This document shows, piece by piece, positions 3,889 to 64,000 of a stretch of 64,000 nucleotides of DNA. The stretch's first letter is position 1. Each line of letters begins with the position of its first letter. The translations under genes and the position numbers were made by a program. The notes beneath the pieces were generated by a model. The model worked only from the letters and a program-made list of their open reading frames with translations, had not been told where the DNA came from and did no database searches. Source of the stretch: Gammaproteobacteria bacterium (GTDB taxonomy: Bacteria > Pseudomonadota > Gammaproteobacteria > UBA4575); the NCBI GenBank assembly GCA_965222615.1, contig CBDCUI010000007.1:758885-822884 (forward strand). The letters are read 5' to 3'.

Positions 3889-5592
3889 ATGTATCGAGCA
3901 GTTGTATTTACCTCACTACTTTTTTTAAGCGCCTGTGGATTTAAAGGCGAATTAGTAAATGAAACCCCTCTTCCACCTAACTTTGCCGTGGCTAGCGCCC
4001 ATCCACTTGCGACCCAGGCCGGGATCGAGATTTTGCAGCAAGGCGGCAATGCCTTTGATGCAGCAGTTGCTGTAACTGCGACATTAGCTGTGGTGGAGCC
4101 TTATGCCTCTGGTTTAGGCGGCGGTGGGTTTTGGTTGTTGCATCGTGGCGATACCCAACAAGACATCATGATTGATGGACGCGAAATGGCACCAAGTAAA
4201 GCCACACAAGATATGTATCTAGGTGCGGATGGAAAGCCAACGGATCAGTCGGTGGAAGGGCCTCTAGCGGCAGGTATTCCCGGTGTGCCGGCAGGCATTG
4301 TACATATCTCCAAGCACTATGGTCGTTTACCATTGAGTACCAGCTTGGATTTTGCTATCCGGGTCGCACATGAGGGATTTGCGATCGACCAACGTTATCA
4401 TCGCTTAGCTACTGCACGTTTAAAATCGCTGCAGCAATCTGCACAGACCGCGGCAATTTTTCTTACTCAAGGCGAAGTTCCAAGCGTAGGTTATAACCTT
4501 AAGCAGCCACAATTGGCACATGTCTTAGAACAGATTCGTGACCTAGGTGCAAACGGCTTTTATCGCGGTGCTGTAGCACAAAAATTGGTGAGGGGGGTGC
4601 AACAAGCCGGAGGCATCTGGCAATTAAAAGATTTGCAGCAATATCAAATTAAAGAACGCCAACCTATCTTTGGTCAATATGGAGATATCAACCTTGTAAG
4701 TGCTGCACTACCGTCTTCAGGTGGCATCGTGTTGATACAAATGCTGAATATGTTGGCAACGCAGGAGCTTGAAAATTTACATGGCGCACAACGTATTCAT
4801 ACACTGGTAGAAGTCATGCGGCGTGCCTATTCCGAGCGTGCCAAACACCTAGGTGATATGGATTTTATAGAAGTTCCCATTGAAAAATTGTTATCCGAAG
4901 ACTACGCCCAACAACTTATAGCCGATTTTAATGTGCACACCGCTACTCCCAGTCAAAACTTTTTAACCGACCCGGTATTATTGGATGGGGATGTGCAGCA
5001 GGAAGGGCAAAATACCACGCACTTTTCTATTATCGATCAACATGGTAACTATGTCGCGGCAACATTATCGATTAATTATCCCTTTGGCTCTGGTTTTGTG
5101 CCTGCGGGTACCGGTGTGTTGTTAAACAATGAAATGGATGATTTTGCTGTTCAGCCGGGCCATCCAAACTTATGGGGCTTAATCGGTAGTGAGGCCAATG
5201 CCATTGCACCGGGCAAGCGAATGTTATCCAGTATGTCGCCGACTTTTTTATATGACGACAATCGAATAGCTATTTTAGGTACGCCGGGAGGGAGTAGGAT
5301 TATTACCATGGTGTTGTTAGCAGCATTGGAATTTGCAAAAGGTGCCAATGTACAAACTATGGTTGAATTGCCACGCTTTCATCATCAGTTTTTACCAGAT
5401 CAAATACAGTTTGAAAGCAACGCACTGGATACGGCTACGCAAACGGTGCTGATTAATATGGGGCATCAGCTACATGAGATGCAACGCAGCTATGGCAATA
5501 TGCATGCAATCATGTGGGATAAAAAAACTAAGCAAGTAACTGCTGCAAGTGACCCACGCGGCATTGGTCATGCACAAGTTGGTCCACATTAA
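3889..5592 (+). CDS. ggt: Gamma-glutamyltransferase (lipoprotein signal)
   Basis: GGNAFDAAVA, TTHFS nucleophile, LNNEMDDF, SSMSPT, GTPGG. Confidence 0.95.
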   Translation: MYRAVVFTSLLFLSACGFKGELVNETPLPPNFAVASAHPLATQAGIEILQQGGNAFDAAVAVTATLAVVEPYASGLGGGGFWLLHRGDTQQDIMIDGREMAPSKATQDMYLGADGKPTDQSVEGPLAAGIPGVPAGIVHISKHYGRLPLSTSLDFAIRVAHEGFAIDQRYHRLATARLKSLQQSAQTAAIFLTQGEVPSVGYNLKQPQLAHVLEQIRDLGANGFYRGAVAQKLVRGVQQAGGIWQLKDLQQYQIKERQPIFGQYGDINLVSAALPSSGGIVLIQMLNMLATQELENLHGAQRIHTLVEVMRRAYSERAKHLGDMDFIEVPIEKLLSEDYAQQLIADFNVHTATPSQNFLTDPVLLDGDVQQEGQNTTHFSIIDQHGNYVAATLSINYPFGSGFVPAGTGVLLNNEMDDFAVQPGHPNLWGLIGSEANAIAPGKRMLSSMSPTFLYDDNRIAILGTPGGSRIITMVLLAALEFAKGANVQTMVELPRFHHQFLPDQIQFESNALDTATQTVLINMGHQLHEMQRSYGNMHAIMWDKKTKQVTAASDPRGIGHAQVGPH

Positions 5593-11794: not shown

Positions 11795-13756
11795 ATGCAT
11801 ATTCTAGGTGTAGATACTGGAGGAACTTTTACCGATCTCGTCTATTTTGACGGACAACACTTGTTGACACATAAAGAATTATCAACGCCTGATGCACCAG
11901 AGCGTGCCATTCTTAAAGGCATTACGGCGTTGGGTGTGAATACTAAAGATTTGCATATTGTACATGGTACTACAGTAGCTACGAATGCTCTGCTTGAAGG
12001 CAAAGGGGCACGTACAGTATTTATTACCAATCATGGTTTTAAAGATCTATTGTTAATCGGTCGACAAACGCGCCGAGAATTATACAACCTTACTCCTAAA
12101 AAACAGCGCTCATTGATTGAGCCGCAGCTATGCTTGGAAACCGGAGGCAGGATCAATCCACAAGGCGATACGATTCAACCACTGTTACCCGAAGAATGTA
12201 AACAACTGATCGCAAAAATTGACCAACTACAACCTGAAGCAATTGCTATTTGCTTGTTGTTTGCCTTTGTTGATGCCAGTTATGAACAAGCAATTAGAAA
12301 ATTATTTTCCGAGCAATACTTTGTATCTATTTCATCAGAAGTATTGGCTGAACATCGTGAATATGAACGCGGTTTGGCTACTTGGTTAAACAGTTATCTT
12401 GGTCCGGTAATGCACAACTATCTTTCTAGCTTAGGTAAACAACTACCAAATTCAAGTATTTCAGTGATGCAGAGTCATGGCCTAACACTGAATGCGGCTG
12501 CGGCGCAACGCAATGCGGTGCGTCTGTTGTTATCGGGTCCCGCAGGAGGGTTGTGGGCGAGTCTACATGCAGGTGAGGCGATCGATCACACACAATTGCT
12601 TACTTTTGATATGGGCGGGACTTCTACAGATGTATCTATTATTAATCATGGCTTTAATTTAACCAATCAAGGCGAAGTGGCAGCCTTACCGATTGCCGTA
12701 CCGATGTTAGATATTCATACCATCGGTGCGGGTGGTGGTTCAATTGCCTGGATAGATGAAGGTGGCTTACTGCAAGTTGGGCCTGATTCTGCGGGCGCAG
12801 CACCTGGTCCTGCATGTTATGGACAAGGTGGTGAACAAGCCACGGTAACCGATGCGCATGTGGTGTTAGGGCGATTGCCTGCAACTAGCAAATTGGCAGG
12901 GAATTTGTCACTCGATCGCGATGCGGCCTATGCGGCGATCGCTAAACTTGCCAAACGTCTGCAACTAGATGTACATGCTTGTGTACAGGGTATTGTGCGC
13001 GTAGCCAATGAACAAATGGCACAAGCATTGCGCGTAATGTCGGTACATCGTGGTTACGACCCAAACCAGTTCACCTTGGTGAGTTTCGGTGGTGCAGGTG
13101 GATTACATGTATGTGATTTAGCCGATGCACTTAATATTAAATACGCGTTAGTTCCAGCCTATGCAGGCGTATTATCTGCTTTTGGCTTGTTGATCGCACC
13201 GCCAGGAAAAGAAATATCACAAAGCCACATCAAATTAGTTAGTGAATGTAGTGATGCAGAAATAAATAAATTATTTTTGCAACTTGAAGAAAAAATTTCT
13301 CGCGATTTACATTCAGAAAAAAATGTAAGTTTCTCCATCAAACGAGAAATTGAATTGCGTTATCAAGGTCAAGCCGCAACATTAAAATTATTATGGCAGG
13401 ATCTGCATCAAGCCACCCAAAAATTTCATACTAAACATGAAAGCCGTTTTGGTCATCATTTACGTATACCAGTCGAAGTCGTAAATTTACGTCTGACCGC
13501 TAGTGGCGAAAGCCATAAAATTTCACTTAGTCAAGAATCATCGACGGCACCTTCGTTACCACATGAACACACTTGGTTAGCCGAATTAAATACCGAAGTG
13601 CCGGTGTATGAACGTGAAAATATTGAACAAAAACAAGAACTTTTAGGGCCATCAATCATTATTGAGCGGCAGGCTACAGTTTATGTAAGTCCTCATTGGC
13701 GAGTAACCGCCCAGGCTTCAGGAGGCCTATTATTGGAGCGAATGGATAAAAAGTGA
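11795..13756 (+). CDS. Hydantoinase/oxoprolinase family protein (HyuA-like)
   Basis: GVDTGGTFTD, HGTTVATNA, SGPAGG, DMGGTSTD, GAGGGS, FGGAGGLH. Confidence 0.92.
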   Translation: MHILGVDTGGTFTDLVYFDGQHLLTHKELSTPDAPERAILKGITALGVNTKDLHIVHGTTVATNALLEGKGARTVFITNHGFKDLLLIGRQTRRELYNLTPKKQRSLIEPQLCLETGGRINPQGDTIQPLLPEECKQLIAKIDQLQPEAIAICLLFAFVDASYEQAIRKLFSEQYFVSISSEVLAEHREYERGLATWLNSYLGPVMHNYLSSLGKQLPNSSISVMQSHGLTLNAAAAQRNAVRLLLSGPAGGLWASLHAGEAIDHTQLLTFDMGGTSTDVSIINHGFNLTNQGEVAALPIAVPMLDIHTIGAGGGSIAWIDEGGLLQVGPDSAGAAPGPACYGQGGEQATVTDAHVVLGRLPATSKLAGNLSLDRDAAYAAIAKLAKRLQLDVHACVQGIVRVANEQMAQALRVMSVHRGYDPNQFTLVSFGGAGGLHVCDLADALNIKYALVPAYAGVLSAFGLLIAPPGKEISQSHIKLVSECSDAEINKLFLQLEEKISRDLHSEKNVSFSIKREIELRYQGQAATLKLLWQDLHQATQKFHTKHESRFGHHLRIPVEVVNLRLTASGESHKISLSQESSTAPSLPHEHTWLAELNTEVPVYERENIEQKQELLGPSIIIERQATVYVSPHWRVTAQASGGLLLERMDKK

Positions 13757-29931: not shown

Positions 29932-30060
29932 TAAGCAGCATCAAAAATGATTGCTTTCGTCCAATAGCAATGGTATGGCCTCCCTCAACTTTAAACGGCA
30001 TCGTAATGTGCCCATACTGGAAGCGATAGAACCAGTTACTTTGAATAAAGGAGACCATAC

Positions 30061-31095
30061 ATGAACAAGATTACACGCATGGGTGTGGATTTGGCAAAGC
30101 ATGTTTTTCAACTACACGGGGTGGATCGCACGGGAAAGTGCGTATTCAAACGACGCTTATCTCGAAGCAAGTGGCTTAAGGTATTAGTGGAGCATGTTGA
30201 ACCGGGTGGTGAGATTGGCATGGAGGCCTGTTCGGGTGCACACCACTGGGCTCGTGTATTACAACAACGAGGCTATGTGGTGAAATTGATTGCACCCCAG
30301 TTTGTAAAGCCTTATGTAAAGAGCAACAAGAATGATGCCAACGATGCCGAAGCCATTTGCGAAGCCATGAGTCGCCCCAACATGCGCTTTGTCACGATCA
30401 AAAGTATTGAACAGCAAGACATTCAGGCCCTGCATCGTGTGCGTAATACTTTGGTGCAACAACGCACCGCTAAAGCCAATCAGATTCGAGGCTTAGTGAG
30501 TGAATATGGCTTAGTCGCACCCCAACAGTTACATCGATTACGCGCTGCAATACCGACTTGGTTAGAAGACGGAGAGAATGGCTTAACGCCACACTTTCGT
30601 TCTTTACTACAGGGACTTCAACATGACGTACTAACATTAGATGCGCGTGTAAAAGAACTTGATCAAACGATTGAACAACAGGCCAAACAAAACGAAGTCA
30701 CCAAGCGTCTACAACAGCTACGAGGGGTCGGGCCGATGGTGGCCACAGCATTGATTGCCACGGTAGGCGATGCCAAACAATACAAGAGCAGTCGCCAGAT
30801 GGCGGCAGCCTTAGGCTTAACCCCCAGACAACACAGTTCAGGCAATAAAGAGCGTTTACTGGAAATCAGTAAACGCGGCGATGCCTATCTGCGCACCTTA
30901 CTCATTCACGGAGCAAGGGCTGTCGTCTCGCAAGCGAAACATAAAGAGGATCGATTGAGTCAGTGGGTCACGCATCTTTCTAAAACCAAACATACGAATG
31001 TGGCCGCTGTCGCACTGGCGAATAAAACCGTGCGTATGGCATTTGCAATGTTGCGAGATGAAAGTGAATATGATCCGAACTTTGCGCTTATGTGA
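30061..31095 (+). CDS. IS110-family transposase/recombinase (A)
   Basis: DEDD RuvC-like motifs GVDLAK, MEAC, KNDANDA; HSSG serine loop; AVALANK. Confidence 0.95.
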   Translation: MNKITRMGVDLAKHVFQLHGVDRTGKCVFKRRLSRSKWLKVLVEHVEPGGEIGMEACSGAHHWARVLQQRGYVVKLIAPQFVKPYVKSNKNDANDAEAICEAMSRPNMRFVTIKSIEQQDIQALHRVRNTLVQQRTAKANQIRGLVSEYGLVAPQQLHRLRAAIPTWLEDGENGLTPHFRSLLQGLQHDVLTLDARVKELDQTIEQQAKQNEVTKRLQQLRGVGPMVATALIATVGDAKQYKSSRQMAAALGLTPRQHSSGNKERLLEISKRGDAYLRTLLIHGARAVVSQAKHKEDRLSQWVTHLSKTKHTNVAAVALANKTVRMAFAMLRDESEYDPNFALM

Positions 31096-31139
31096 AATAA
31101 AACAATTAACGAAATTACATGTACTTACACTTAAGAGGA

Positions 31140-31350
31140 TTATCTACCACGATTGCAAAGTAATTTATTAGATGGCAAACCGGTCGAACCGACCTAAGCG
31201 TAACCCGTGAATGTCCAGGTACTTCGAGTACGTAATAGCGATTGGGTGCTTAGGTGCGAATACACCATCCTGGCCCAGCATCAACGCTTGCTATCAATAG
31301 AGGCCGAATATACGTGTGCAGTCGACTCTACTTTGTCATTGAATATTTTG
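31140..31350 (+). ncRNA. Predicted bridge/seekRNA of element A
   Basis: Stem ACCTAAGC/GCTTAGGT enclosing GAATGTCC and AATAGCG (target matches); second loop with ACCAT and ATATAC (circle-junction matches); ends approximate. Confidence 0.8.
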
Positions 31351-31391
31351 CTTGCAAACGGAGGGAGGCCATATACGGACATTTTATAAAT

Positions 31392-52540: not shown

Positions 52541-54205
<1,665 letters not shown>

Positions 54206-54230
54206 TTTCGTTCTATACTCTCTCGTTACG

Positions 54231-54259
54231 AAAAGGCCTCGCAATGCGAGGCCTTTTTT
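54231..54259 (+). terminator. Intrinsic terminator after groEL
   Basis: AAAAGGCCTCGC-AAT-GCGAGGCCTTTTTT. Confidence 0.9.
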
Positions 54260-54499
54260 ATATCTACTTTATTTATTTCGGCAAGAAGGAAACGTTCAGT
54301 TCATTTTTATAATCTTGTCGCTGGGTTCTCGGACCCAACGGAGTGCACTTTGATAAATTAGTTCTACGTAACCAAGTCCTCATGACTGACTACAGGGAAC
54401 TTTTGTTACGGTAATAGCGAGTGCAAGGAAGTACGAGTGAGAGTTCGCATCATGGATGTTGCTTTCAGTTAAAATTAGCTGTTTCTTGCAAAACCATTT

Positions 54500-54625
54500 G
54501 CGCTGAACATCACGTAATTCTTCGAATGCTCGTACTTTTCGGCGGCTCGTGAACTCGCTTCGCTCAAACAGGCACTCGCCTTCTTTCCGAAAAGAACTGC
54601 GCTTCTCAGCGTGATGTAATGCGCG
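54500..54625. repeat. REP/MITE-like structured intergenic element
   Basis: Nested inverted repeats (TTTTCGG/CCGAAAA, CATCACG) around AACTCGCTTCGCTCAAAC; single copy in window. Confidence 0.4.
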
Positions 54626-54770
54626 AATAAGAGGCTTTGAATTTAGATTATAATGAATGTCTGCATTCGGCCAATAGCAATGGTATGGCCTCCCTCTACT
54701 TTAAACGGCATCGCAATGTGCCCAAACTGGAAGCGATTATAACCAGTCAGTAAAAGAAGGAGACCATACA

Positions 54771-55805
54771 ATGAACAAGGTTACACGCATGGGTGTCGAT
54801 TTGGCAAAGAATGTTTTTCAATTACACGGCGTAGATCGCACGGGAAAGTGTGTTTTTAAACGACGCTTGAGTCGAAGTAAGTGGATCGATACGTTGTGTG
54901 CTGCAGCCGAATCGGATTGTGAGATTGGGATGGAAGCCTGTAGCGGTGCGCATCACTGGGCACGGATATTAAAACAACGTGGCTATGTCGTAAAACTCAT
55001 TGCTCCCCAGTTTGTAAAGCCCTATGTAAAAAGCAACAAGAATGATGCCAAGGATGCTGAAGCGATCTGTGAAGCCATGAGTCGTCCTAACATGCGATTT
55101 GTAACCATGAAGAGCATTGAACAACAAGACCTTCAAGCCATGCATCGTGTTCGCAGTACTTTAGTGCAACAACGTACCGCCAAAGCCAATCAAATACGCG
55201 GCTTGGTGAGTGAATACGGCCTGGTCGCACCACAACAACTGCATACCTTACGCAAAACAATTCCCACTTGGTTGGAAGATGCTGAGAATGGTTTAACGGA
55301 TTGTTTTCGGTCTTTATTGCAAGGGCTGTGGAATGATTTCATCGGATTACATCAGCGTGTACAAGAATTAGATCAAGCGATCGAACACTTCGCGAAACAA
55401 AACGAAGTAACAACCCGGTTACAGCAATTACGTGGCGTAGGACCAATGGTAGCCACCGCTTTGATTGCAACTGTCGGGGATGCAAAACAATATAGAAATA
55501 GTCGTCAGATGGCCGCATCTTTAGGGTTAACGCCCAGACAACATAGCTCAGGCAACAAAGAACATTTACTCGGCATCAGTAAACGTGGCGATGCCTATCT
55601 ACGCACCTTACTCATCCATGGAGCACGTGCTGTGGTCTCGCAAGCCAAACATAAAGAGGATCGTTTAAGTCGCTGGGGGACTAATCTTGCAGAGCAAAAA
55701 CATACGAATGTGGCCGCGGTGGCACTGGCGAATAAAACTGTACGCATGGCATTTGCCATGCTACGTAATGGAACCGATTATGATCCTGCGTTGGCAGTAA
55801 CCTAA
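54771..55805 (+). CDS. IS110-family transposase (A')
   Basis: GVDLAK, MEAC, KNDAKDA, HSSG, GISKRG. Confidence 0.95.
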   Translation: MNKVTRMGVDLAKNVFQLHGVDRTGKCVFKRRLSRSKWIDTLCAAAESDCEIGMEACSGAHHWARILKQRGYVVKLIAPQFVKPYVKSNKNDAKDAEAICEAMSRPNMRFVTMKSIEQQDLQAMHRVRSTLVQQRTAKANQIRGLVSEYGLVAPQQLHTLRKTIPTWLEDAENGLTDCFRSLLQGLWNDFIGLHQRVQELDQAIEHFAKQNEVTTRLQQLRGVGPMVATALIATVGDAKQYRNSRQMAASLGLTPRQHSSGNKEHLLGISKRGDAYLRTLLIHGARAVVSQAKHKEDRLSRWGTNLAEQKHTNVAAVALANKTVRMAFAMLRNGTDYDPALAVT

Positions 55806-55834
55806 AAACAAAATAACGATACTTAAGGAAATTC

Positions 55835-56040
55835 ACATCACGATTGCGAAGTAATCTATTAGATGGTAAACCGGTCGAACCGGTGCAAGTGAAACTCGAG
55901 AATGTCCGTGTACGGTACAGTACGTAATAGCGATTGAGAGCTTGCGCGCGAATACACCATCATGGCCCAGCATCAACGTATGCTAACCATTGAGGCCGAA
56001 TATACGTGTGCAGTCGACCTTGCTTTGCCAAACAATATTT
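55835..56040 (+). ncRNA. Predicted bridge/seekRNA of A'
   Basis: Guides GAATGTCCG (55900-55908) and AATAGCG (55926-55932); stems covary with element A; ends approximate. Confidence 0.8.
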
Positions 56041-56092
56041 TACTTGCATTATGAGGGAGGCCATATACGGTCATTCAAAATAAGATAGTAAT

Positions 56093-56500
56093 TTATCTAA
56101 CTCTCCAGTATCGCTCAATAAAAGCGTATTTAGCTACCCCTATCCAATAAGGTACAAAGCATAATATTGGTGCAACTATGTACCACAAATCTGATGATTT
56201 CCATTCCTGAAATTTTATTCCTTCAATTGCTGCAATAACCACATATCCAATTCCAAATACAACTTCATTACCTATAATTATTAAAGCAATTATTATCCAA
56301 AACCATTGTTTAAAAATATAACGCTCATACGCATATCCATACAAAGCTACAATTCCAAACGGAAGCGTTGCCCACATTACGTAGTCCTGTATCTCGTTAG
56401 GCCCAAGACTAGCCTCTGGAATGAAAATTTCAAATACAATTAAGAGAATATTTATTAATATAAATAAATAAAAATAACTTTTACGCAGTAGCTTTAACAT
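56093..56500 (-). CDS. Small membrane protein (inverted cassette)
   Basis: 135 aa, about 4 TM segments, AT-rich. Confidence 0.75.
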   Translation of the reverse strand: MLKLLRKSYFYLFILINILLIVFEIFIPEASLGPNEIQDYVMWATLPFGIVALYGYAYERYIFKQWFWIIIALIIIGNEVVFGIGYVVIAAIEGIKFQEWKSSDLWYIVAPILCFVPYWIGVAKYAFIERYWRVR

Positions 56501-56554
56501 TTATTAAATAAAGAATAATTCTTTATAACGAAAAATCGGATGTCTGCTTTGGGT

Positions 56555-57785
56555 TGCCGATTCAATTGATCATCGCAACACATTGGCTAAATCGTTCTGC
56601 CGGTGTTTCAAATTCTAATGTTTTCCTAGGTCGCTCATTAAGTTGGCGAGCAACCGCATTGAGTTTGTGTTGAGAGTGTACCGATAAATCTGTGCCTTTG
56701 GGGAAATACTGACGAAGTAGTAGATTTGTATTTTCATTGGAGCCTCGTTGCCACGGACTTTGTGGATCACAGAAGTATACTTTGATGTCTGTCGCTAAGG
56801 TAAAGCGTTGGTGATCTGCCATCTCTTTGCCGCGATCCCAGGTTAAGGATTGATACAGTTCACTTGGTAGTTTTTTTGATTGTTTGATGAGTGCATTGAT
56901 GACGCTCTTGGTATCTTTGTTTTTGACTTTCACCAACATCACATAGCGTGTATGTCGCTCAACCAAGGTAGCAATGTAACTGTTGTTTGAGCCTGCAATG
57001 AGATCCCCTTCCCAATGCCCTGGCACGGCGCGATCCTCCACCGATGCCGGACGTTGTCGAATGGATACGGCATTCGTAATTTGACCTAAACCTTCATTTT
57101 TCAAACTGGCTTGCTTTGACTGTCGTAAGGTACGTTGCGTGCGCAGATACACAAGTAACTCCTTTTTCAGGGCGCCACGCGCTTGAATAAACAGACTGCG
57201 ATAAATCGTTTCGTGTGACACGGTCTTACTCTCATCATGGGGATGGGTACGTTTTAGCCAACCCGCAATTTGTTCTGGGGACCAGTGTAATTGCAGTTTG
57301 GTTACCACGACATAACACAAGTAGGGATTCGTAGCGAGTTTACACGCTTTCGGGCGACGCGCTCGATTCCACGCAGCTTGCTCCGCTTCGCTCGCACGAT
57401 ACGTCACAACGCCGCCATTGCGCTGAATCTCGCGGCTAATCGTGGAAGGTGAACGCTTCAATTGTTTGGCAATCTGTCGCATGGATAAGTCACAAGCGAG
57501 TCCACGAGAAATTTCTTCGCGTTCCGATAACGTCAGACTGAGTCGTGATCGTGTTCGTTGAGGAGGACGAATGCCACCTGTTTGTGCAAGTATCCGTCGT
57601 ATCGATGAGTGCCCACGGTCAAAAAGTCGAGCAATAGCGTGTAGAGAGTCGCCTTGCTGCCAGCGATCCCACATCACCTGTTTCTGTGCTTCGCTATAAT
57701 AAATGCGTGTTCGATATTTCATCGTTTTCACCCCATCTTCTTTGTGTTTTAAGATAAAGTGTTGCGATGATCAATTGAATCGGCA
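56555..57785 (-). mobile_element. IS30-family element (1231 bp)
   Basis: Perfect 26-bp terminal IR TGCCGATTCAATTGATCATCGCAACA; 2-bp flanks GT/GC. Confidence 0.92.
56562..57731 (-). CDS. IS30-family DDE transposase
   Basis: RSPSTISREI, WSPEQI, GHWEGDL, TWDRGKE, PWQRGSNENTN. Confidence 0.96.
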   Translation of the reverse strand: MKTMKYRTRIYYSEAQKQVMWDRWQQGDSLHAIARLFDRGHSSIRRILAQTGGIRPPQRTRSRLSLTLSEREEISRGLACDLSMRQIAKQLKRSPSTISREIQRNGGVVTYRASEAEQAAWNRARRPKACKLATNPYLCYVVVTKLQLHWSPEQIAGWLKRTHPHDESKTVSHETIYRSLFIQARGALKKELLVYLRTQRTLRQSKQASLKNEGLGQITNAVSIRQRPASVEDRAVPGHWEGDLIAGSNNSYIATLVERHTRYVMLVKVKNKDTKSVINALIKQSKKLPSELYQSLTWDRGKEMADHQRFTLATDIKVYFCDPQSPWQRGSNENTNLLLRQYFPKGTDLSVHSQHKLNAVARQLNERPRKTLEFETPAERFSQCVAMIN

Positions 57786-57828
57786 GCCGTTAGCAGACAC
57801 AATTCAAACTAAATAACGGGAATCTAGG

Positions 57829-57857
57829 TTGGAAACTCTAAATAACAATTCTAAAAT
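57829..57857 (+). promoter_or_regulatory. Linker promoter 1
   Basis: TTGGAA-N17-TAAAAT. Confidence 0.6.
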
Positions 57858-57943
57858 GACTGCTTACGACCCAATGTATGGACACCTCCAAGCTAAGCAA
57901 TTAGTTTGTGTGGTGTTAGAAACACAAAAGAAGGAGTCCATAC

Positions 57944-58987
57944 ATGAAACATCTAAACATAGTTGGCGTTGATTTAGCAAAAAACGTAATCCAAGTTTGC
58001 GTGATGCGCGCGCAGCGACAAGAAGTAATCAATCGTTCCTATAGTCGTACTAAATTTGCAGTATTTCTCGTTAAACAACAGCGCAGTGTCATCGCCTTTG
58101 AAGCATGTGCCAGTAGTCATTATTGGGCACGAAAAGCCAAAGCATTGGGGCATACCATCAAAATCATTCCGGCAAAAGCGATCACACCGTATCGTCAAGG
58201 CCATAAAACCGATATCAATGATGCCCGCGCGATCGCTGAAGCGGCGAGCCGTCCCCACCTACTTGAAGCCCCATTAAAGAGTGTTGAACAACAAGGCTTG
58301 CAAGCCGTACAACGTTCAAGAGAGCTTTTGGTACAAGAGCGAACCGGTCTATCCAACCACATCCGTGGCATATTGATGGAATTTGGCATCGTCATTCCTA
58401 AAGGCTTTGCCGCCTTGCATCAACAGATACCCGAGGTACTAGAAGATGGGGAGAACGAGCTACCCGATCTATATCGCCCGACGTTACAGATATTGTACGA
58501 ACGCTTAGTGCAACTCAAAACAACCATCACGATACTTGATCAACAAATTGCCGCCCTCATCAAACAACATCCAGGTTGCGAAACGCTCATGAAGATAGAA
58601 GGTGTGGGCCCAATCAGTGCGATATTACTGTATGCCAGCCTTGGTAGTGGCGATGCGTTTAGCCAAGGTAGACAATATGCGGCGTACTTAGGGTTAACGC
58701 CCAAGCAATACAGCAGTGGCGGGAAAACGAATCTTATTGGGATAAGTAAAAAGGTTGCGAATAAACGTTTGCGCTCCGTACTCATTCAAGGAGCACGTGC
58801 TTATGTGCACAAGCTCAAAGAACCGAAAAGCCAAAAAGATCGCTGGCTGCTGGCACTGATTGAACGTGCCGGCTATGGCAAGGCGGCGGTAGCGTTAGCC
58901 AACAAAAATGTGCGCACCGCATGGGCCATGCTGACCCGGGGGACAACGTACAATAAACAACATACAACCACGATGCACATTGCATAA
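57944..58987 (+). CDS. IS110-family transposase (B)
   Basis: GVDLAK, FEAC, KTDINDA, YSSGGK, GISK, AVALANK. Confidence 0.95.
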   Translation: MKHLNIVGVDLAKNVIQVCVMRAQRQEVINRSYSRTKFAVFLVKQQRSVIAFEACASSHYWARKAKALGHTIKIIPAKAITPYRQGHKTDINDARAIAEAASRPHLLEAPLKSVEQQGLQAVQRSRELLVQERTGLSNHIRGILMEFGIVIPKGFAALHQQIPEVLEDGENELPDLYRPTLQILYERLVQLKTTITILDQQIAALIKQHPGCETLMKIEGVGPISAILLYASLGSGDAFSQGRQYAAYLGLTPKQYSSGGKTNLIGISKKVANKRLRSVLIQGARAYVHKLKEPKSQKDRWLLALIERAGYGKAAVALANKNVRTAWAMLTRGTTYNKQHTTTMHIA

Positions 58988-59009
58988 AAACAAAACCAAG
59001 ACACTACGT

Positions 59010-59205
59010 TACATAAAAGTGTAGAAGAGGTTAGGCAAGTAGACCTAGGTAAAGAATAAAGAGATTCGCTTCGATGAAACCTGCTCCGCTTTGAGGATAA
59101 ATAGAATCCATCGACCCAATGAGGCATCGAAGTGCGCATACATACAGGGCTAGAAGATCGCAACTTCACGAAAAAGCCGAATATACATCTGCGTCTTTTT
59201 CTTTA
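59010..59205 (+). ncRNA. Predicted bridge/seekRNA of element B
   Basis: Stem CTTCGATG/CATCGAAG enclosing TCCGCTTTG and ATCGACCCAA; donor loop CATACAT/ATATACA; ends approximate. Confidence 0.85.
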
Positions 59206-59309
59206 TCAATTTCTGTTTGCTAAACTGGCGGTGTCCATATACAAAGCGGACATTTCAGAGTTTAAACAAACGCAGTGATATCCACGTAAAAATACATGGT
59301 ATTTCAGTT

Positions 59310-60017
59310 ATGTTTAATAAATTAATAGTTTCAATCCTGGTTTTGTTGCTTTGCGCTTGTGGCAACGAAGTTGACTCTGAGGTTAGCTCTGAAGTTGATT
59401 ACTATGAATTTGATTTCACAAACAAAGAAAAGACAGAAAAGATTACTTTACGATTTAGTAATGCTAACGTTTCTAGATTTCCAGGATGGGAGCATGATCG
59501 CAATAGACGCGTGTCTGTTTCATTGTGGTATCCATCATTATTAGATGCGGCTTCTCCAAATGTTTGGATGTCAAAAAGTGAAGAGCAAGAAAAGCTGAGT
59601 ACCAAGCCAAATCCTGAAGATAGAAAAATCAATTTAAGAGTTGGCGCTTCCAGTAGTAATACTATCCTAGACCCTAGTATGACTCTTGAAGAGAAAACGA
59701 CATTTCATTGTCATATTGATGGCAGACTTAAAAAATTCTCGGAAGACGGACAAGCCGGTAATTTTTATCGTTATAAGTTTACTGAAGAGACTAAACCCCC
59801 AAGAATTCATTACCTATACCACCCAATCGAAAAAATAAAAGGGATATATTGTATAAAGTGTAATGGAACAACTTGCCAGCTAATTGGAATAACTGATTTT
59901 GGTGTAAGTTATACAGCTCTTGAAAGTTATGTTGAAGGGAGAATGGTAGATGAAGCAATAGAAATTCATGGGGGTATTAATGAATATCTACAAAATAAGG
60001 TTGTTACGAGCAAATAA
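59310..60017 (+). CDS. Hypothetical lipoprotein (cassette)
   Basis: MFNKLIVSILVLLLCA-C lipobox; the ORF-track start at 59217 lies inside the IS end. Confidence 0.75.
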   Translation: MFNKLIVSILVLLLCACGNEVDSEVSSEVDYYEFDFTNKEKTEKITLRFSNANVSRFPGWEHDRNRRVSVSLWYPSLLDAASPNVWMSKSEEQEKLSTKPNPEDRKINLRVGASSSNTILDPSMTLEEKTTFHCHIDGRLKKFSEDGQAGNFYRYKFTEETKPPRIHYLYHPIEKIKGIYCIKCNGTTCQLIGITDFGVSYTALESYVEGRMVDEAIEIHGGINEYLQNKVVTSK

Positions 60018-60058
60018 TTATTAAATTGATAATAGAAGGAAAGACTGCTTTGGATGTC

Positions 60059-60086
60059 ATGTCCGCTAATGGCCGAAAGCGGTCAT
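60059..60086 (+). repeat. Intact 28-bp site (downstream type)
   Basis: ATGTCCGCTAA-TGGCCG-AAAGCGGTCAT. Confidence 0.85.
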
Positions 60087-60114
60087 AATTTAAATCTTTA
60101 TAAGGGAAAATTGG

Positions 60115-60143
60115 TTGGAAACTCAAATATCAAGTTCTAAAAC
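60115..60143 (+). promoter_or_regulatory. Linker promoter 2
   Basis: TTGGAA-N17-TAAAAC. Confidence 0.5.
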
Positions 60144-60169
60144 GACTGCTAACGACCCAAAGCGGACAT
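60142..60169 (+). repeat. Intact 28-bp site (upstream type; empty target for element B)
   Basis: ACGACTGCTAA-CGACCC-AAAGCGGACAT. Confidence 0.85.
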
Positions 60170-60184
60170 TTTAAATTTAATGAA

Positions 60185-60406
60185 ATGGCAACTGAACAAC
60201 TAACTTTTATTCTATTCAGTTTAGTTTGGTTCTTGATAGGTATTGGTCTCATATTTGTAAAAATAGATGCTGATAATCTGAAATCCAAATCTCATGCTAT
60301 GCCAGGACTTGCATTGTTTCGATTTTCTTTGTTCAGATGGGGAGCAGTATTAGTTTGTATTATTGGTAGCACAATATTTTTGTTATTGGGCCTTCGTTGG
60401 TTATAA
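60185..60406 (+). CDS. Small 2-TM membrane protein (cassette)
   Basis: 73 aa, fills the space between two sites. Confidence 0.7.
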   Translation: MATEQLTFILFSLVWFLIGIGLIFVKIDADNLKSKSHAMPGLALFRFSLFRWGAVLVCIIGSTIFLLLGLRWL

Positions 60407-60445
60407 AATCGAATGACCGTATATGGCCTCCCTCCGTTTGCAAGC

Positions 60446-60656
60446 AAAATATTCAATGACAAAGTAGAGTCGACTGCACACGTATATTCGGCCTCTATTG
60501 ATAGCAAGCGTTGATGCTGGGCCAGGATGGTGTATTCGCACCTAAGCACCCAATCGCTATTACGTACTCGAAGTACCTGGACATTCACGGGTTACGCTTA
60601 GGTCGGTTCGACCGGTTTGCCATCTAATAAATTACTTTGCAATCGTGGTAGATAAT
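60446..60656 (-). ncRNA. Predicted bridge/seekRNA of element A, copy 2
   Basis: Reverse complement of 31140-31350. Confidence 0.8.
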
Positions 60657-60699
60657 CCTCTTAAGTGTAAGTACATGTAATTTCGTTAATTGTTTTATT

Positions 60700-61734
60700 T
60701 CACATAAGCGCAAAGTTCGGATCATATTCACTTTCATCTCGCAACATTGCAAATGCCATACGCACGGTTTTATTCGCCAGTGCGACAGCGGCCACATTCG
60801 TATGTTTGGTTTTAGAAAGATGCGTGACCCACTGACTCAATCGATCCTCTTTATGTTTCGCTTGCGAGACGACAGCCCTTGCTCCGTGAATGAGTAAGGT
60901 GCGCAGATAGGCATCGCCGCGTTTACTGATTTCCAGTAAACGCTCTTTATTGCCTGAACTGTGTTGTCTGGGGGTTAAGCCTAAGGCTGCCGCCATCTGG
61001 CGACTGCTCTTGTATTGTTTGGCATCGCCTACCGTGGCAATCAATGCTGTGGCCACCATCGGCCCGACCCCTCGTAGCTGTTGTAGACGCTTGGTGACTT
61101 CGTTTTGTTTGGCCTGTTGTTCAATCGTTTGATCAAGTTCTTTTACACGCGCATCTAATGTTAGTACGTCATGTTGAAGTCCCTGTAGTAAAGAACGAAA
61201 GTGTGGCGTTAAGCCATTCTCTCCGTCTTCTAACCAAGTCGGTATTGCAGCGCGTAATCGATGTAACTGTTGGGGTGCGACTAAGCCATATTCACTCACT
61301 AAGCCTCGAATCTGATTGGCTTTAGCGGTGCGTTGTTGCACCAAAGTATTACGCACACGATGCAGGGCCTGAATGTCTTGCTGTTCAATACTTTTGATCG
61401 TGACAAAGCGCATGTTGGGGCGACTCATGGCTTCGCAAATGGCTTCGGCATCGTTGGCATCATTCTTGTTGCTCTTTACATAAGGCTTTACAAACTGGGG
61501 TGCAATCAATTTCACCACATAGCCTCGTTGTTGTAATACACGAGCCCAGTGGTGTGCACCCGAACAGGCCTCCATGCCAATCTCACCACCCGGTTCAACA
61601 TGCTCCACTAATACCTTAAGCCACTTGCTTCGAGATAAGCGTCGTTTGAATACGCACTTTCCCGTGCGATCCACCCCGTGTAGTTGAAAAACATGCTTTG
61701 CCAAATCCACACCCATGCGTGTAATCTTGTTCAT
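60700..61734 (-). CDS. IS110-family transposase (A)
   Basis: Translation identical to 30061..31095. Confidence 0.95.
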   Translation of the reverse strand: MNKITRMGVDLAKHVFQLHGVDRTGKCVFKRRLSRSKWLKVLVEHVEPGGEIGMEACSGAHHWARVLQQRGYVVKLIAPQFVKPYVKSNKNDANDAEAICEAMSRPNMRFVTIKSIEQQDIQALHRVRNTLVQQRTAKANQIRGLVSEYGLVAPQQLHRLRAAIPTWLEDGENGLTPHFRSLLQGLQHDVLTLDARVKELDQTIEQQAKQNEVTKRLQQLRGVGPMVATALIATVGDAKQYKSSRQMAAALGLTPRQHSSGNKERLLEISKRGDAYLRTLLIHGARAVVSQAKHKEDRLSQWVTHLSKTKHTNVAAVALANKTVRMAFAMLRDESEYDPNFALM

Positions 61735-61866
61735 GTATGGTCTCCTTTATTCAAAGTAACTGGTTCTATCGCTTCCAGTATGGGCACATTACGATGCCGT
61801 TTAAAGTTGAGGGAGGCCATACCATTGCTATTGGCCGAAAGCGGACAAAATCTAAAGGGAAACTGG

Positions 61867-61895
61867 TTGGATTCAATGAAATACAAACTTAAAAT
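61867..61895 (+). promoter_or_regulatory. Linker promoter 3
   Basis: TTGGAT-N17-TAAAAT. Confidence 0.6.
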
Positions 61896-61981
61896 GTCTC
61901 CTTACGACCCAATGTATGGACACCTCCAAGCTAAGCAATTAGTTTGTGTGGTGTTAGAAACACAAAAGAAGGAGTCCATAC

Positions 61982-63025
61982 ATGAAACATCTAAACATAG
62001 TTGGCGTTGATTTAGCAAAAAACGTAATCCAAGTTTGCGTGATGCGCGCGCAGCGACAAGAAGTAATCAATCGTTCCTATAGTCGTACTAAATTTGCAGT
62101 ATTTCTCGTTAAACAACAGCGCAGTGTCATCGCCTTTGAAGCATGTGCCAGTAGTCATTATTGGGCACGAAAAGCCAAAGCATTGGGGCATACCATCAAA
62201 ATCATTCCGGCAAAAGCGATCACACCGTATCGTCAAGGCCATAAAACCGATATCAATGATGCCCGCGCGATCGCTGAAGCGGCGAGCCGTCCCCACCTAC
62301 TTGAAGCCCCATTAAAGAGTGTTGAACAACAAGGCTTGCAAGCCGTACAACGTTCAAGAGAGCTTTTGGTACAAGAGCGAACCGGTCTATCCAACCACAT
62401 CCGTGGCATATTGATGGAATTTGGCATCGTCATTCCTAAAGGCTTTGCCGCCTTGCATCAACAGATACCCGAGGTACTAGAAGATGGGGAGAACGAGCTA
62501 CCCGATCTATATCGCCCGACGTTACAGATATTGTACGAACGCTTAGTGCAACTCAAAACAACCATCACGATACTTGATCAACAAATTGCCGCCCTCATCA
62601 AACAACATCCAGGTTGCGAAACGCTCATGAAGATAGAAGGTGTGGGCCCAATCAGTGCGATATTACTGTATGCCAGCCTTGGTAGTGGCGATGCGTTTAG
62701 CCAAGGTAGACAATATGCGGCGTACTTAGGGTTAACGCCCAAGCAATACAGCAGTGGCGGGAAAACGAATCTTATTGGGATAAGTAAAAAGGTTGCGAAT
62801 AAACGTTTGCGCTCCGTACTCATTCAAGGAGCACGTGCTTATGTGCACAAGCTCAAAGAACCGAAAAGCCAAAAAGATCGCTGGCTGCTGGCACTGATTG
62901 AACGTGCCGGCTATGGCAAGGCGGCGGTAGCGTTAGCCAACAAAAATGTGCGCACCGCATGGGCCATGCTGACCCGGGGGACAACGTACAATAAACAACA
63001 TACAACCACGATGCACATTGCATAA
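61982..63025 (+). CDS. IS110-family transposase (B)
   Basis: Translation identical to 57944..58987. Confidence 0.95.
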   Translation: MKHLNIVGVDLAKNVIQVCVMRAQRQEVINRSYSRTKFAVFLVKQQRSVIAFEACASSHYWARKAKALGHTIKIIPAKAITPYRQGHKTDINDARAIAEAASRPHLLEAPLKSVEQQGLQAVQRSRELLVQERTGLSNHIRGILMEFGIVIPKGFAALHQQIPEVLEDGENELPDLYRPTLQILYERLVQLKTTITILDQQIAALIKQHPGCETLMKIEGVGPISAILLYASLGSGDAFSQGRQYAAYLGLTPKQYSSGGKTNLIGISKKVANKRLRSVLIQGARAYVHKLKEPKSQKDRWLLALIERAGYGKAAVALANKNVRTAWAMLTRGTTYNKQHTTTMHIA

Positions 63026-63047
63026 AAACAAAACCAAGACACTACGT

Positions 63048-63243
63048 TACATAAAAGTGTAGAAGAGGTTAGGCAAGTAGACCTAGGTAAAGAATAAAGA
63101 GATTCGCTTCGATGAAACCTGCTCCGCTTTGAGGATAAATAGAATCCATCGACCCAATGAGGCATCGAAGTGCGCATACATACAGGGCTAGAAGATCGCA
63201 ACTTCACGAAAAAGCCGAATATACATCTGCGTCTTTTTCTTTA
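63048..63243 (+). ncRNA. Predicted bridge/seekRNA of element B, copy 2
   Basis: Same sequence as 59010-59205. Confidence 0.85.
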
Positions 63244-63302
63244 TCAATTTCTGTTTGCTAAACTGGCGGTGTCCATATACAAAGCGGACATTTATAAAAT
63301 AA

Positions 63303-63650
63303 ATGAGTAAATTGAATTTAAACGGCAGCTGGCTAATGCCTATGCTTTATTTGTTAGCATTAATAATCGCTATTTATTTTATATGGCTTTACCAAATTGA
63401 TGATTTTACGAATGATAATGTAGAGGGAATAAGACAGTTTTATTGGGTTGTAGCTATCGCCCTTGCTGGCTGCCAAGCCTTTTTAATAGTTTTATATTTC
63501 ATCAATAACTTCCTTGTTAAGCCAGCATCACTCTACATATTTGCAATATTATTAGTTGTGCCATTTGTTTGCATACTTACTTGGGTGAATTTCATAAAGA
63601 CGGGTGAAATTGATTTTTTAGAAACAATAACAAAGCTTATTGGAATTTAA
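63303..63650 (+). CDS. Small 3-TM membrane protein (cassette)
   Basis: 115 aa; starts 11 bp after one site and stops 3 bp before the next. Confidence 0.75.
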   Translation: MSKLNLNGSWLMPMLYLLALIIAIYFIWLYQIDDFTNDNVEGIRQFYWVVAIALAGCQAFLIVLYFINNFLVKPASLYIFAILLVVPFVCILTWVNFIKTGEIDFLETITKLIGI

Positions 63651-63653
63651 TAA

Positions 63654-63681
63654 ATGACAGCTATTGGCCGAAAGGAAACAT
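63654..63681 (+). repeat. 28-bp site (downstream type, somewhat diverged)
   Basis: ATGACAGCTAT-TGGCCG-AAAGGAAACAT. Confidence 0.8.
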
Positions 63682-63699
63682 AAAATGGGACGCAGTTGG

Positions 63700-63728
63700 T
63701 TGGAATCAATTACATACAAGTGCAAAAT
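63700..63728 (+). promoter_or_regulatory. Linker promoter 4
   Basis: TTGGAA-N17-CAAAAT. Confidence 0.5.
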
Positions 63729-63745
63729 GACTGCTATCGACCCAA

Positions 63746-64000
63746 TGTATGGACACCTCCAAGCTAAGCAATTAGTTTGTGTGGTGTTAGAAACACAAAA
63801 GAAGGAGTCCATACATGAAACATCTAAACATAGTTGGCGTTGATTTAGCAAAAAACGTAATCCAAGTTTGCGTGATGCGCGCGCAGCGACAAGAAGTAAT
63901 CAATCGTTCCTATAGTCGTACTAAATTTGCAGTATTTCTCGTTAAACAACAGCGCAGTGTCATCGCCTTTGAAGCATGTGCCAGTAGTCATTATTGGGCA
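63746..64000 (+). mobile_element. IS1111-type element B, copy 3 (cut by window end; transposase starts 63815)
   Basis: Left end and 5' coding sequence match copies 1 and 2. Confidence 0.9.

Follow-up and report, generated by a model that had tools for sequence, protein, structure and literature searches.

According to the excerpts available from three published accounts, the mobile accessory modules of Acinetobacter are bracketed by 28-bp pdif sites with an 11-6-11 layout (PMC6449649, PMC10132070, PMC13141974). Here we describe an array of small unrelated genes delimited by 28-bp sites of similar geometry, located at the end of a window of 64,000 nucleotides (the whole stretch of DNA that was analyzed; contig CBDCUI010000007.1 of assembly GCA_965222615.1, a gammaproteobacterium of the lineage UBA4575). 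The sites fall into two classes, which we call U and D. Gene cassettes bracketed by recombination sites are a known kind of arrangement, to which the U and D sites are new. Comparison of the sequences suggests, with a probability of about 0.5, that U and D are the recombination sites of a gene-cassette system that would be neither an integron nor a dif module. The observations behind this reading are the two site classes with their shared orientation and conservation, the ends of duplicated modules at the sites, the varying content of the arrays, and the insertion sequences (ISs) that target the sites.

The genome under study is designated G000, C7 being the contig that carries the window and C8 and C9 further contigs. 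It was compared with relatives of the same family (56 genomes scanned including G000, with labels such as G001 to G052), which are 68–83% identical to it at groEL or ampD. In G006, a complete 2.76-Mb relative, 18 site loci were read, comprising 152 sites (93 U and 59 D). Sites were searched by consensus, with a degenerate 16-nt core and up to two mismatches in the window and with a strict core pattern in the family, and an exact 20-nt U core was scanned against a species-representative collection, the counts from which are lower bounds. The profiles used were TIGR02249 for integron integrases (cut-off 265 bits), PF01797 for Y1/RAYT (REP-associated tyrosine transposase, REP standing for repetitive extragenic palindrome), PF00239 for serine recombinases, and PF00589 for tyrosine recombinases.

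Two site classes in the window

The U consensus is ATGWCYGCTWW-CGACCC-AAAGCRGACAT and the D consensus is ATGWCYGCTWW-TGGCCG-AAAGCRGACAT, both of 28 bp with a 6-bp centre. The array in the window contains nine sites, three intact (60059, 60142, and 63654) and six split by ISs, and their orientation is the same within each half of the array. The first-pass annotation, made from the letters alone, had listed nine 28-bp sites, and we recovered every one of them at the same position with the same letters. It had also described full inverted arms of 11 nt around a 6-bp centre; the length and the centre hold, but not the pairing of the full arms, since complementarity in G000 is limited to the outer 9 nt and the inner AA..AA is unpaired. 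In relatives, the conserved block is approximately 13-6-13. Two inverted arms around a 6-bp centre correspond to the layout of a core-type tyrosine-recombinase site, for which an overlap of 6–8 bp is required. From D to the following U runs a linker of 45–55 nt, itself conserved, with GGTTGGAA located 22–23 nt ahead of U.

The number of sites exceeds chance expectation. The degenerate core gave 11 matches in the window versus 2.28 expected, and none of 100 shuffles reached 11. Nine of these matches belong to the array (at eight places, one being matched on both strands), another corresponds to the lone D site at 29953, and the last one, at 13052 with two mismatches, probably occurs by chance. 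As a control, the reversed core pattern gave no match in 41 genomes.

Each interval of the array holds an AT-rich open reading frame (ORF), as the first-pass annotation had reported: the four ORFs have 31.6–35.3% G+C, compared to 41.6% for the window, and none of the four has a Pfam match. No tyrosine or serine recombinase was matched in the window, in agreement with the same annotation, an integron integrase being present elsewhere in the genome.

Three kinds of IS interrupt the sites, each at a fixed place. ISA, of the IS110 family, lies in U between CCCAA and AAGCGGACAT, at the same position and orientation in all five complete copies of the genome. ISB, also of the IS110 family and present as two variants that are 79% alike, lies in D after ATGWCCG, again with one position and orientation (6 of 6 copies), and the IS30-like ISC occupies the centre of U in the same manner (2 of 2 copies). 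ISA and ISB are guests in the sites and not the cause of the arrays; in the family, IS110 elements were found only in G000, G001, and G017, and not in most site-rich relatives. The features of the array, and the lone D site, are as follows.

54657–56074, minus strand: D site split by an ISB variant; in minus-strand reading ATGACCG, the IS (~54678–56067), and CTATTGGCCGAATGCAGACAT
56093–56500, minus strand: candidate cassette ORF, 135 aa, membrane-like; no Pfam family; 31.9% G+C
56540–57800, minus strand: U site with the IS30-like ISC (~56552–57790) inserted in its centre
57801–57855, plus strand: 55-nt linker with GGTTGGAA; promoter-like TTGGAA-17-TAAAAT running into the next U
57856–59253, plus strand: U site split by ISA (IS110 family, ~57875–59243), inserted between CCCAA and AAGCGGACAT
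59310–60017, plus strand: candidate cassette ORF, 235 aa, putative lipoprotein; no Pfam family; 35.3% G+C
60059–60086, plus strand: intact D site, ATGTCCGCTAA-TGGCCG-AAAGCGGTCAT
60087–60141, plus strand: 55-nt linker with GGTTGGAA
60142–60169, plus strand: intact U site, ACGACTGCTAA-CGACCC-AAAGCGGACAT
60185–60406, plus strand: candidate cassette ORF, 73 aa, membrane-like; no Pfam family
60413–61848, plus strand: D site split by ISB (IS110 family, ~60420–61827), inserted after ATGACCG
61849–61893, plus strand: 45-nt linker with GGTTGGAT
61894–63291, plus strand: U site split by a second ISA copy (~61913–63281)
63303–63650, plus strand: candidate cassette ORF, 115 aa, membrane-like; no Pfam family; 31.6% G+C
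63654–63681, plus strand: D site with a degenerate right arm, otherwise intact, ATGACAGCTAT-TGGCCG-AAAGGAAACAT
63682–63726, plus strand: 45-nt linker with GGTTGGAA
63727–64000, plus strand: U site interrupted by a third ISA copy that the contig end truncates; the array resumes at G000:C8:1–4700
29947–31382, minus strand: lone D site split by a further ISB copy, after a 101-aa membrane ORF inserted between purH and the transporter gene adjoining purD

Modules that end at the sites

Four modules of 460–884 bp are duplicated in G006, in unrelated contexts and with 99.6–100% identity. All eight of their ends fall inside a site or at most 4 nt from its edge, more specifically one exactly at the junction between left arm and centre and another at position 7/8 of the left arm. 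The ends of other duplicates in this genome are not at sites. A DUF7684 gene common to G000 and G006 (86–88% identity) precedes D in two contexts and U in another, and the homology stops at the left arm. The wider breakpoint profile comprises only 28 ends of high-scoring segment pairs, approximately 14 of them independent, with right ends mostly at site positions 24–32 and left ends at −1/0 or 7/8.

These positions might also be explained by transposition, U and D being the ends of non-autonomous transposable modules (U-gene-D) on which a transposase encoded elsewhere would act, cutting at the outer edges and inserting the module beside existing ones. Shared segments mostly include both complete sites, which together with the above distribution of right and left ends is what such an enzyme would leave; the units have the form U-gene-D, arrays start with U and end with D, and the TG...CA arms resemble many transposon ends. 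Nevertheless, no target-site duplication was seen at the four module pairs, one end lies inside a site at the arm/centre junction, and neighbouring pairs of the type U-gene-U (36) and D-gene-D (9) are common in G006. In addition, no transposase family tracks the sites among those tested (Y1, IS110, and serine recombinase families). We regard this explanation as quite unlikely.

An old array between groEL and ampD

The window ends with contig C7, inside an ISA copy. In relatives, ampD follows groEL, and in G000 ampD is found at C8:4701, beyond a stretch (C8:1–4700) that holds two ISA copies, a short IS30-derived remnant, and another three sites, which are partly degenerate. The array thus fills the groEL-ampD gap, which in G000 reaches at least 14.5 kb and at least 12 sites. 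Across 11 measured relatives the gap is 0.03–3.1 kb: 0.03 kb in G006 and 1.5 kb in G001, both devoid of sites, and 0.4–3.1 kb with 0–4 sites in the nine measured genomes of genus g7. Variable content, which the first-pass annotation had proposed to look for, is therefore observed at this locus among related genomes (G000 versus the 11 relatives). A degenerate D adjoining ampD is common to G000, G014, and G007, and this shared site, combined with the differing gaps, suggests that the hot spot is old and its content variable. In G000, it is occupied by an old, IS-ridden array. We also observe short non-coding remnants with IS30-like ends in the sites nearest to ampD in two genera (G000:C8:4380–4651; G014, locus L215:900–1000 and 2680–2775).

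Occurrence in the genome, the family, and other phyla

With at most one mismatch, G000 contains 13 matches to the D core and 9 to the U core. These approximately 22 matches are distributed over four clusters, plus singles: the end of C7 (the window), the start of C8, C9:80.5–82.7 kb in a prophage-like region, and C9:253.7–260.1 kb. The third cluster is a mini-array free of ISs (G000:C9:80500–82700; L001:4513–6697), about 3 kb from the integrase of the prophage-like region, in the order U, RRM protein and small ORFs, DUF7684, D-linker-U, CBS-domain protein, D. The fourth is an IS-ridden U/D array (G000:C9:253700–262700; L002, L182) with its end 0.9 kb from the canonical dif candidate at C9:261038. 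About 1 kb past dif lies a short tyrosine-recombinase ORF of 216 aa, which may be the remnant of an element integrated at dif.

In the family, the scan of genome and relatives that the first-pass annotation had recommended detected the strict core in 30 of the 56 genomes, with up to 152 matches each, whereas the reversed control gave a single match in total over the 56. The exact U core was present in more than 117 stretches from alpha-, beta-, and gammaproteobacteria, Nitrospirota, Nitrospinaceae, and a Cyclobacteriaceae metagenome-assembled genome (MAG), with 35–71% G+C; they include Xanthomonadales, Burkholderiales, Sphingomonadales, Caulobacterales, marine gammaproteobacteria, and a 925-kb Cyclobacteriaceae contig. 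Distant U sites form a nearly perfect palindrome, ATGTCCGCTTT-CGACCC-AAAGCGGACAT. A Caulobacter genome contains an array of approximately 35 sites spaced 250–600 bp apart, a Lysobacter genome shows a D-to-U distance of 59 nt from start to start, equal to a spacing of G006, and the array of a Sphingomonadales MAG has a centre variant of its own. The sites, being widespread across phyla, are not a peculiarity of one organism, a point that was not known to the first-pass annotation.

Palindromes related to U and D were also detected on plasmids of Pantoea and Klebsiella as well as in a prophage of E. coli, and they flank moron-like genes in prophages. A plasmid search with the window unit gave no match, and one with the Lysobacter unit gave only short matches covering 29–50% of the query, mostly its U-site part. 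On the Pantoea vagans plasmid pPV989-508 (L192:4005–4680), a gene for a fosfomycin-resistance-like glutathione transferase lies between related GTCCGC...GCGGAC palindromes, one upstream and a pair downstream. In an E. coli O157:H7 prophage (L244, about 5010–5045), a shorter related palindrome precedes a gene of the dGTPase family, in a location flanked by a helix-turn-helix gene and the prophage integrase; palindromes like this one were found in 944 of 5426 E. coli genomes, at one to three places each.

Short palindromes that recur between genes raise the question of whether U and D are intergenic elements of the REP or bacterial interspersed mosaic element (BIME) kind. They would then be binding sites for host proteins or structural elements, and shuffling would be a by-product of homologous or illegitimate recombination with no dedicated recombinase. 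Indeed, the sites are intergenic palindromes that are single or paired with discrete linkers (59/60 and 82–84 nt), like mosaic REPs; they are targeted by IS110 and IS30 elements, as is typical of REPs; they show no consistent link to any recombinase; and many module ends lie at the outer site edges, as if the whole repeat were a homology anchor. However, Y1/RAYT was not found in six site-rich genomes with 20–127 strict matches (G006, G007, G009, G019, G022, and G038), and one copy is present in G000. The sites are also low in copy number and clustered, as shown by the approximately 22 matches of G000, and they bracket accessory genes instead of occupying all intergenic regions. Their arms show no covariation and their hairpins are weak in the family, and their sequence is near-identical across phyla and the wide G+C range given above, whereas REPs are species-specific. 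Finally, 28 bp is at the lower limit for RecA-dependent exchange. The independent REP-like scatter that the first-pass annotation had named as a possible objection is thus not what we observe, and a REP-type origin appears unlikely. DNA uptake sequences, which are lineage-specific and far more numerous, were rejected, as were clustered regularly interspaced short palindromic repeats (CRISPR), given that the spacers here are genes.

Array organization and cargo in G006

Neighbouring sites in G006 have the same orientation in 122 of 134 pairs. Short D-to-U spacings, measured from start to start, are 59/60 or 82–84 nt, and gene-sized intervals range from 225 to 3638 bp. The site-flanked ORFs with a Pfam match (74) belong to 82 families, with at most three members each and no recombinase among the 25 families listed. 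At the same G006 loci, a homologue in G000 exists for 12 of 51 site-bracketed genes versus 76 of 138 genes at a distance of more than 2.5 kb from every site. The cargo is diverse and accessory. The longest ORF runs along the site orientation in 62 of 94 intervals.

Some loci of this genome have features of their own. A tRNA-Gly(CCC) gene stands in cassette position at L017:11531–11628, its 3' end abutting a U that lacks the outer half of the left arm. A second linker class of 31 nt (L017, L018, L024), without GGTTGGAA and with the consensus CACTTGCTATGATTCA..., is paired with D sites ending in GACAC. In addition, the left arm is ATGTCY in U sites that follow a D, and mostly ATGACC, with YGA ahead of it, in lone U sites.

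The placement of the sites around genes could indicate a regulatory role, U being an operator or 5' element after a linker promoter and D a 3' end element, bound by a conserved regulator or insulating horizontally acquired genes, and travelling with genes without causing their movement. In the window, U lies 3–56 nt upstream of the ORFs and D just downstream; the linker motif TTGGAA-17-YAAAAT ends in the first two letters of U, and one linker passed a simple promoter scan; and, as mentioned, related palindromes flank moron-like prophage genes. Against this, genes are opposed to the sites in 32 of the 94 G006 intervals, the region contains 13 promoter-like sites versus 22 expected and is thus not enriched, and no T run follows D in the window. 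Module ends at sites and varying arrays at one locus are also left unexplained, and a purely regulatory function is in our view very unlikely. The linker promoter is a lead only. The missing T run, judged by reading only, led us to reject intrinsic terminators as well. Ribozymes were rejected because Rfam gave nothing: a scan of 54000–64000 with E values up to 1 returned two sub-threshold chance matches only.

Reading of the sites and the resident integron

If the sites were read as folded strands, their arms would be expected to covary. Nevertheless, arm-to-arm Watson-Crick counts equal the expectation for independent columns in 77 distinct G006 sites and in 176 distinct distant sites, and D-arm versus U-arm pairing likewise shows no covariation in 26 D-linker-U composites. 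The left arm in the family, ATGACCGCTAA, is systematically unlike the mirror of the right arm (ATGTCCGCTTT), and positions 4–25 are mismatched in 53 of the 77 distinct G006 sites. The intact U of the window folds with −1.5 kcal/mol (z −0.4). The missing covariation suggests that the sites are probably read as double-stranded sequence and not as hairpins, the two arms perhaps by different protein subunits.

The 111-nt D-linker-U unit, taken as single-stranded DNA, forms a long but imperfect hairpin, with D paired to U (−17 kcal/mol, z −3.9), and G000 encodes an integron integrase (C9:397324–398262) that scores 490 bits with TIGR02249. It is therefore conceivable that D-linker-U is an unusual attC used by the resident integron integrase. 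However, this integrase belongs to a canonical chromosomal integron (G000:C9:385400–398262; L233:458–13293), where it is divergent from about 20 small minus-strand ORFs with ordinary attC sites between them, and no U or D site occurs in that array (C9:385.4–397.2 kb). The attC sites of G000 end in ..TAAC and GTTAGG, whereas the D-linker-U ends read ATGWCYGC... and ...GCRGACAT, devoid of RYYYAAC/GTTRRRY cores; the integrase gene lies on another contig than the window array, and the folded-strand covariation mentioned above is missing in the composites. Furthermore, no integron integrase over the cut-off was found in G006, G019, or the Caulobacter and Lysobacter genomes, and the sites occur in Alphaproteobacteria, in which integrons are not known. 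We consider the attC explanation highly improbable. The first-pass annotation was right in separating U and D from attC, as this genome keeps a separate integron with ordinary attC, and also from dif: the canonical dif candidate at C9:261038, ACTTCGCATAA-TATATA-TTATGTTAAGA, is unlike U and D, as the left arms share approximately 5 of 11 letters with that of dif when compared by eye and the right arms none.

Candidate recombinases

XerC and XerD are present in all ten genomes searched with PF00589. In G006, two paralogues (47% identical) of a 379-aa tyrosine recombinase, here called IntX, flank an array. IntX, intact or decayed, was found in 9 of the 56 family genomes, all nine site-bearing, and in none of the 26 site-less ones; eight of the nine have 14–152 strict matches and one has 4. 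A site is present at four of seven metagenomic IntX loci. Serine-recombinase crossover sites, of which the arm layout looks similar to that of U and D, were rejected, since searches with PF00239 found no match in seven site-bearing genomes, G000 among them. Also rejected was a match of 15 nt between the D left arm and an integrase gene (C7:367002); its letters encode the catalytic GH motif, and the match is attributed to chance.

A possible cassette mechanism

We propose that U and D are two classes of one double-stranded recombination site, defined by sequence, with an 11-6-11 layout (approximately 13-6-13 in relatives), and that each cassette consists of the gene, or small group of genes, enclosed by two sites. 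DNA would be exchanged within the sites by a site-specific enzyme, most probably a tyrosine recombinase, so that cassettes would leave as circles and enter at any other site, and arrays would accumulate at hot spots such as the groEL-ampD gap. The unit of D, conserved linker, and U would be the junction between neighbouring cassettes, and the linker may supply a promoter for the next gene. In G000, the sites now act mainly as landing pads for two IS110-family elements and one IS30-like element, which recognize them. The system in this genome is probably a decayed, IS-colonized relic that is no longer active, because G000 has no IntX-type recombinase and no duplicated cassette and six of the nine window sites are broken.

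Several observations weigh against this mechanism. No recombinase was found that consistently accompanies the sites, in G000 or across phyla. IntX is absent from 21 of the 30 site-bearing family genomes, including G000 and G046; besides XerC and XerD, the latter, with 69 strict matches, has a single further integrase. Searches of the Caulobacter and Sphingomonadales genomes did not detect IntX either, and its family is tiny, with 15 proteins. Its association with the sites is also weaker than the counts suggest, because kin are not independent. No recombinase was present among ten ORFs scanned within approximately 10 kb of the Caulobacter array, and none recurs near 80 distant sites, where the neighbours are generic (ABC ATPase, SDR, LysR, histidine kinases). 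The U and D centres differ, which would hinder a complete U × D exchange by a tyrosine recombinase, and in about a third of the G006 intervals the gene is, as mentioned, opposed to the sites. In several cases the module ends lie at the outer site edge, and twice (right end of pair 3, left end of pair 5) an unusual site has moved as a whole with its module, a pattern not expected from a crossover within the site. Finally, neither an excision joint nor an empty-site allele was seen in public contigs or in four sequencing runs, of which contigs only were searched. The contigs of the four runs, including a second sample with the same arrangement, have loose ends at U/D edges, which originate from other loci that carry the same sites. 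The check for excised circles that the first-pass annotation had suggested thus gave no excision joint at the level of contigs. Its more general proposal of a distinct system for gene capture and shuffling holds as far as distinct sites, accessory cargo, and site-ended modules are concerned, but a cognate recombinase and an excised circle were not obtained.

On a broader scale, we tentatively suggest that U and D may represent a third general bacterial cassette system beside integrons and Xer dif modules, even if this falls somewhat short of an even chance. Such a system would be based on a 28–32-bp site in two classes plus a linker, would have spread by horizontal gene transfer through Alpha-, Beta-, and Gammaproteobacteria and beyond, and would reside in many small chromosomal arrays as well as on plasmids and in prophages. 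Its recombinases would be among those not yet recognized, with IntX as the version of this family. If U and D are real recombination sites, many environmental Proteobacteria, Alphaproteobacteria included, exchange accessory genes through a cassette mechanism not reported by current tools. Integron finders seek attC and dif-module finders seek dif-like sites, so that both would miss U and D. The sites are short, exact, and easy to scan, so that the protein that reads them, the positions of cleavage, and the share of the flexible gene pool that moves in this manner can be addressed by direct tests. A sequence-defined site this short, together with a compact recombinase, might also find use as a tool, and the related site pair that flanks the fosfomycin-resistance-like gene on the Pantoea plasmid indicates that the system may touch resistance gene flow.

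Comparison with known systems

No description of U/D sites was found in the open full-text literature, at the level of listings and abstracts, in searches for the site letters in both orientations, non-integron cassette systems, and dif modules outside Acinetobacter, with supplements, ISfinder, and subscription journals outside this scope; the site letters matched only unrelated primers in full text.

With integrons, the arrays share several features: they consist of unrelated small accessory genes, mostly promoterless-looking, with cassettes of similar size (225–3638 bp), separated by a composite repeat of 87–111 bp made of two simple sites. They also occur without a nearby integrase, like clusters of attC sites lacking integrases (CALINs), and are targeted by IS110/IS1111-type elements. 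Nevertheless, U and D are defined by sequence and not by fold, have no RYYYAAC/GTTRRRY, and occur in site-rich genomes where our searches found no integron integrase. They also form many arrays per genome instead of one platform, extend to Alphaproteobacteria, and in G000 coexist with a separate integron.

The resemblance to pdif/dif modules, as far as the available excerpts describe them, lies in the 28-bp 11-6-11 sites that bracket accessory modules, in modules with no dedicated recombinase gene, and in ISs that specialize on the sites. In contrast, U and D bear no likeness to dif, form two classes that differ by their centre, and separate modules by two sites plus a conserved linker. Sites of pdif modules alternate in inverted orientation, whereas U/D neighbours are direct in 122 of the 134 G006 pairs; U and D are moreover chromosomal and span several phyla.

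Like REPs, BIMEs, and REPINs (REP doublets forming hairpins), U and D are short intergenic palindromes, single or paired with fixed linkers and hit by IS110 and IS30 elements. They differ by the lack of Y1/RAYT in the richest genomes, by their low and clustered copies tied to accessory genes, and by a phylum-spanning sequence without covariation. As for the IS110/IS1111 elements that target specific sites, of which attC-, REP-, and dif-targeting groups are described, ISA in U and ISB in D behave likewise, each inserting at one fixed position and in one orientation.

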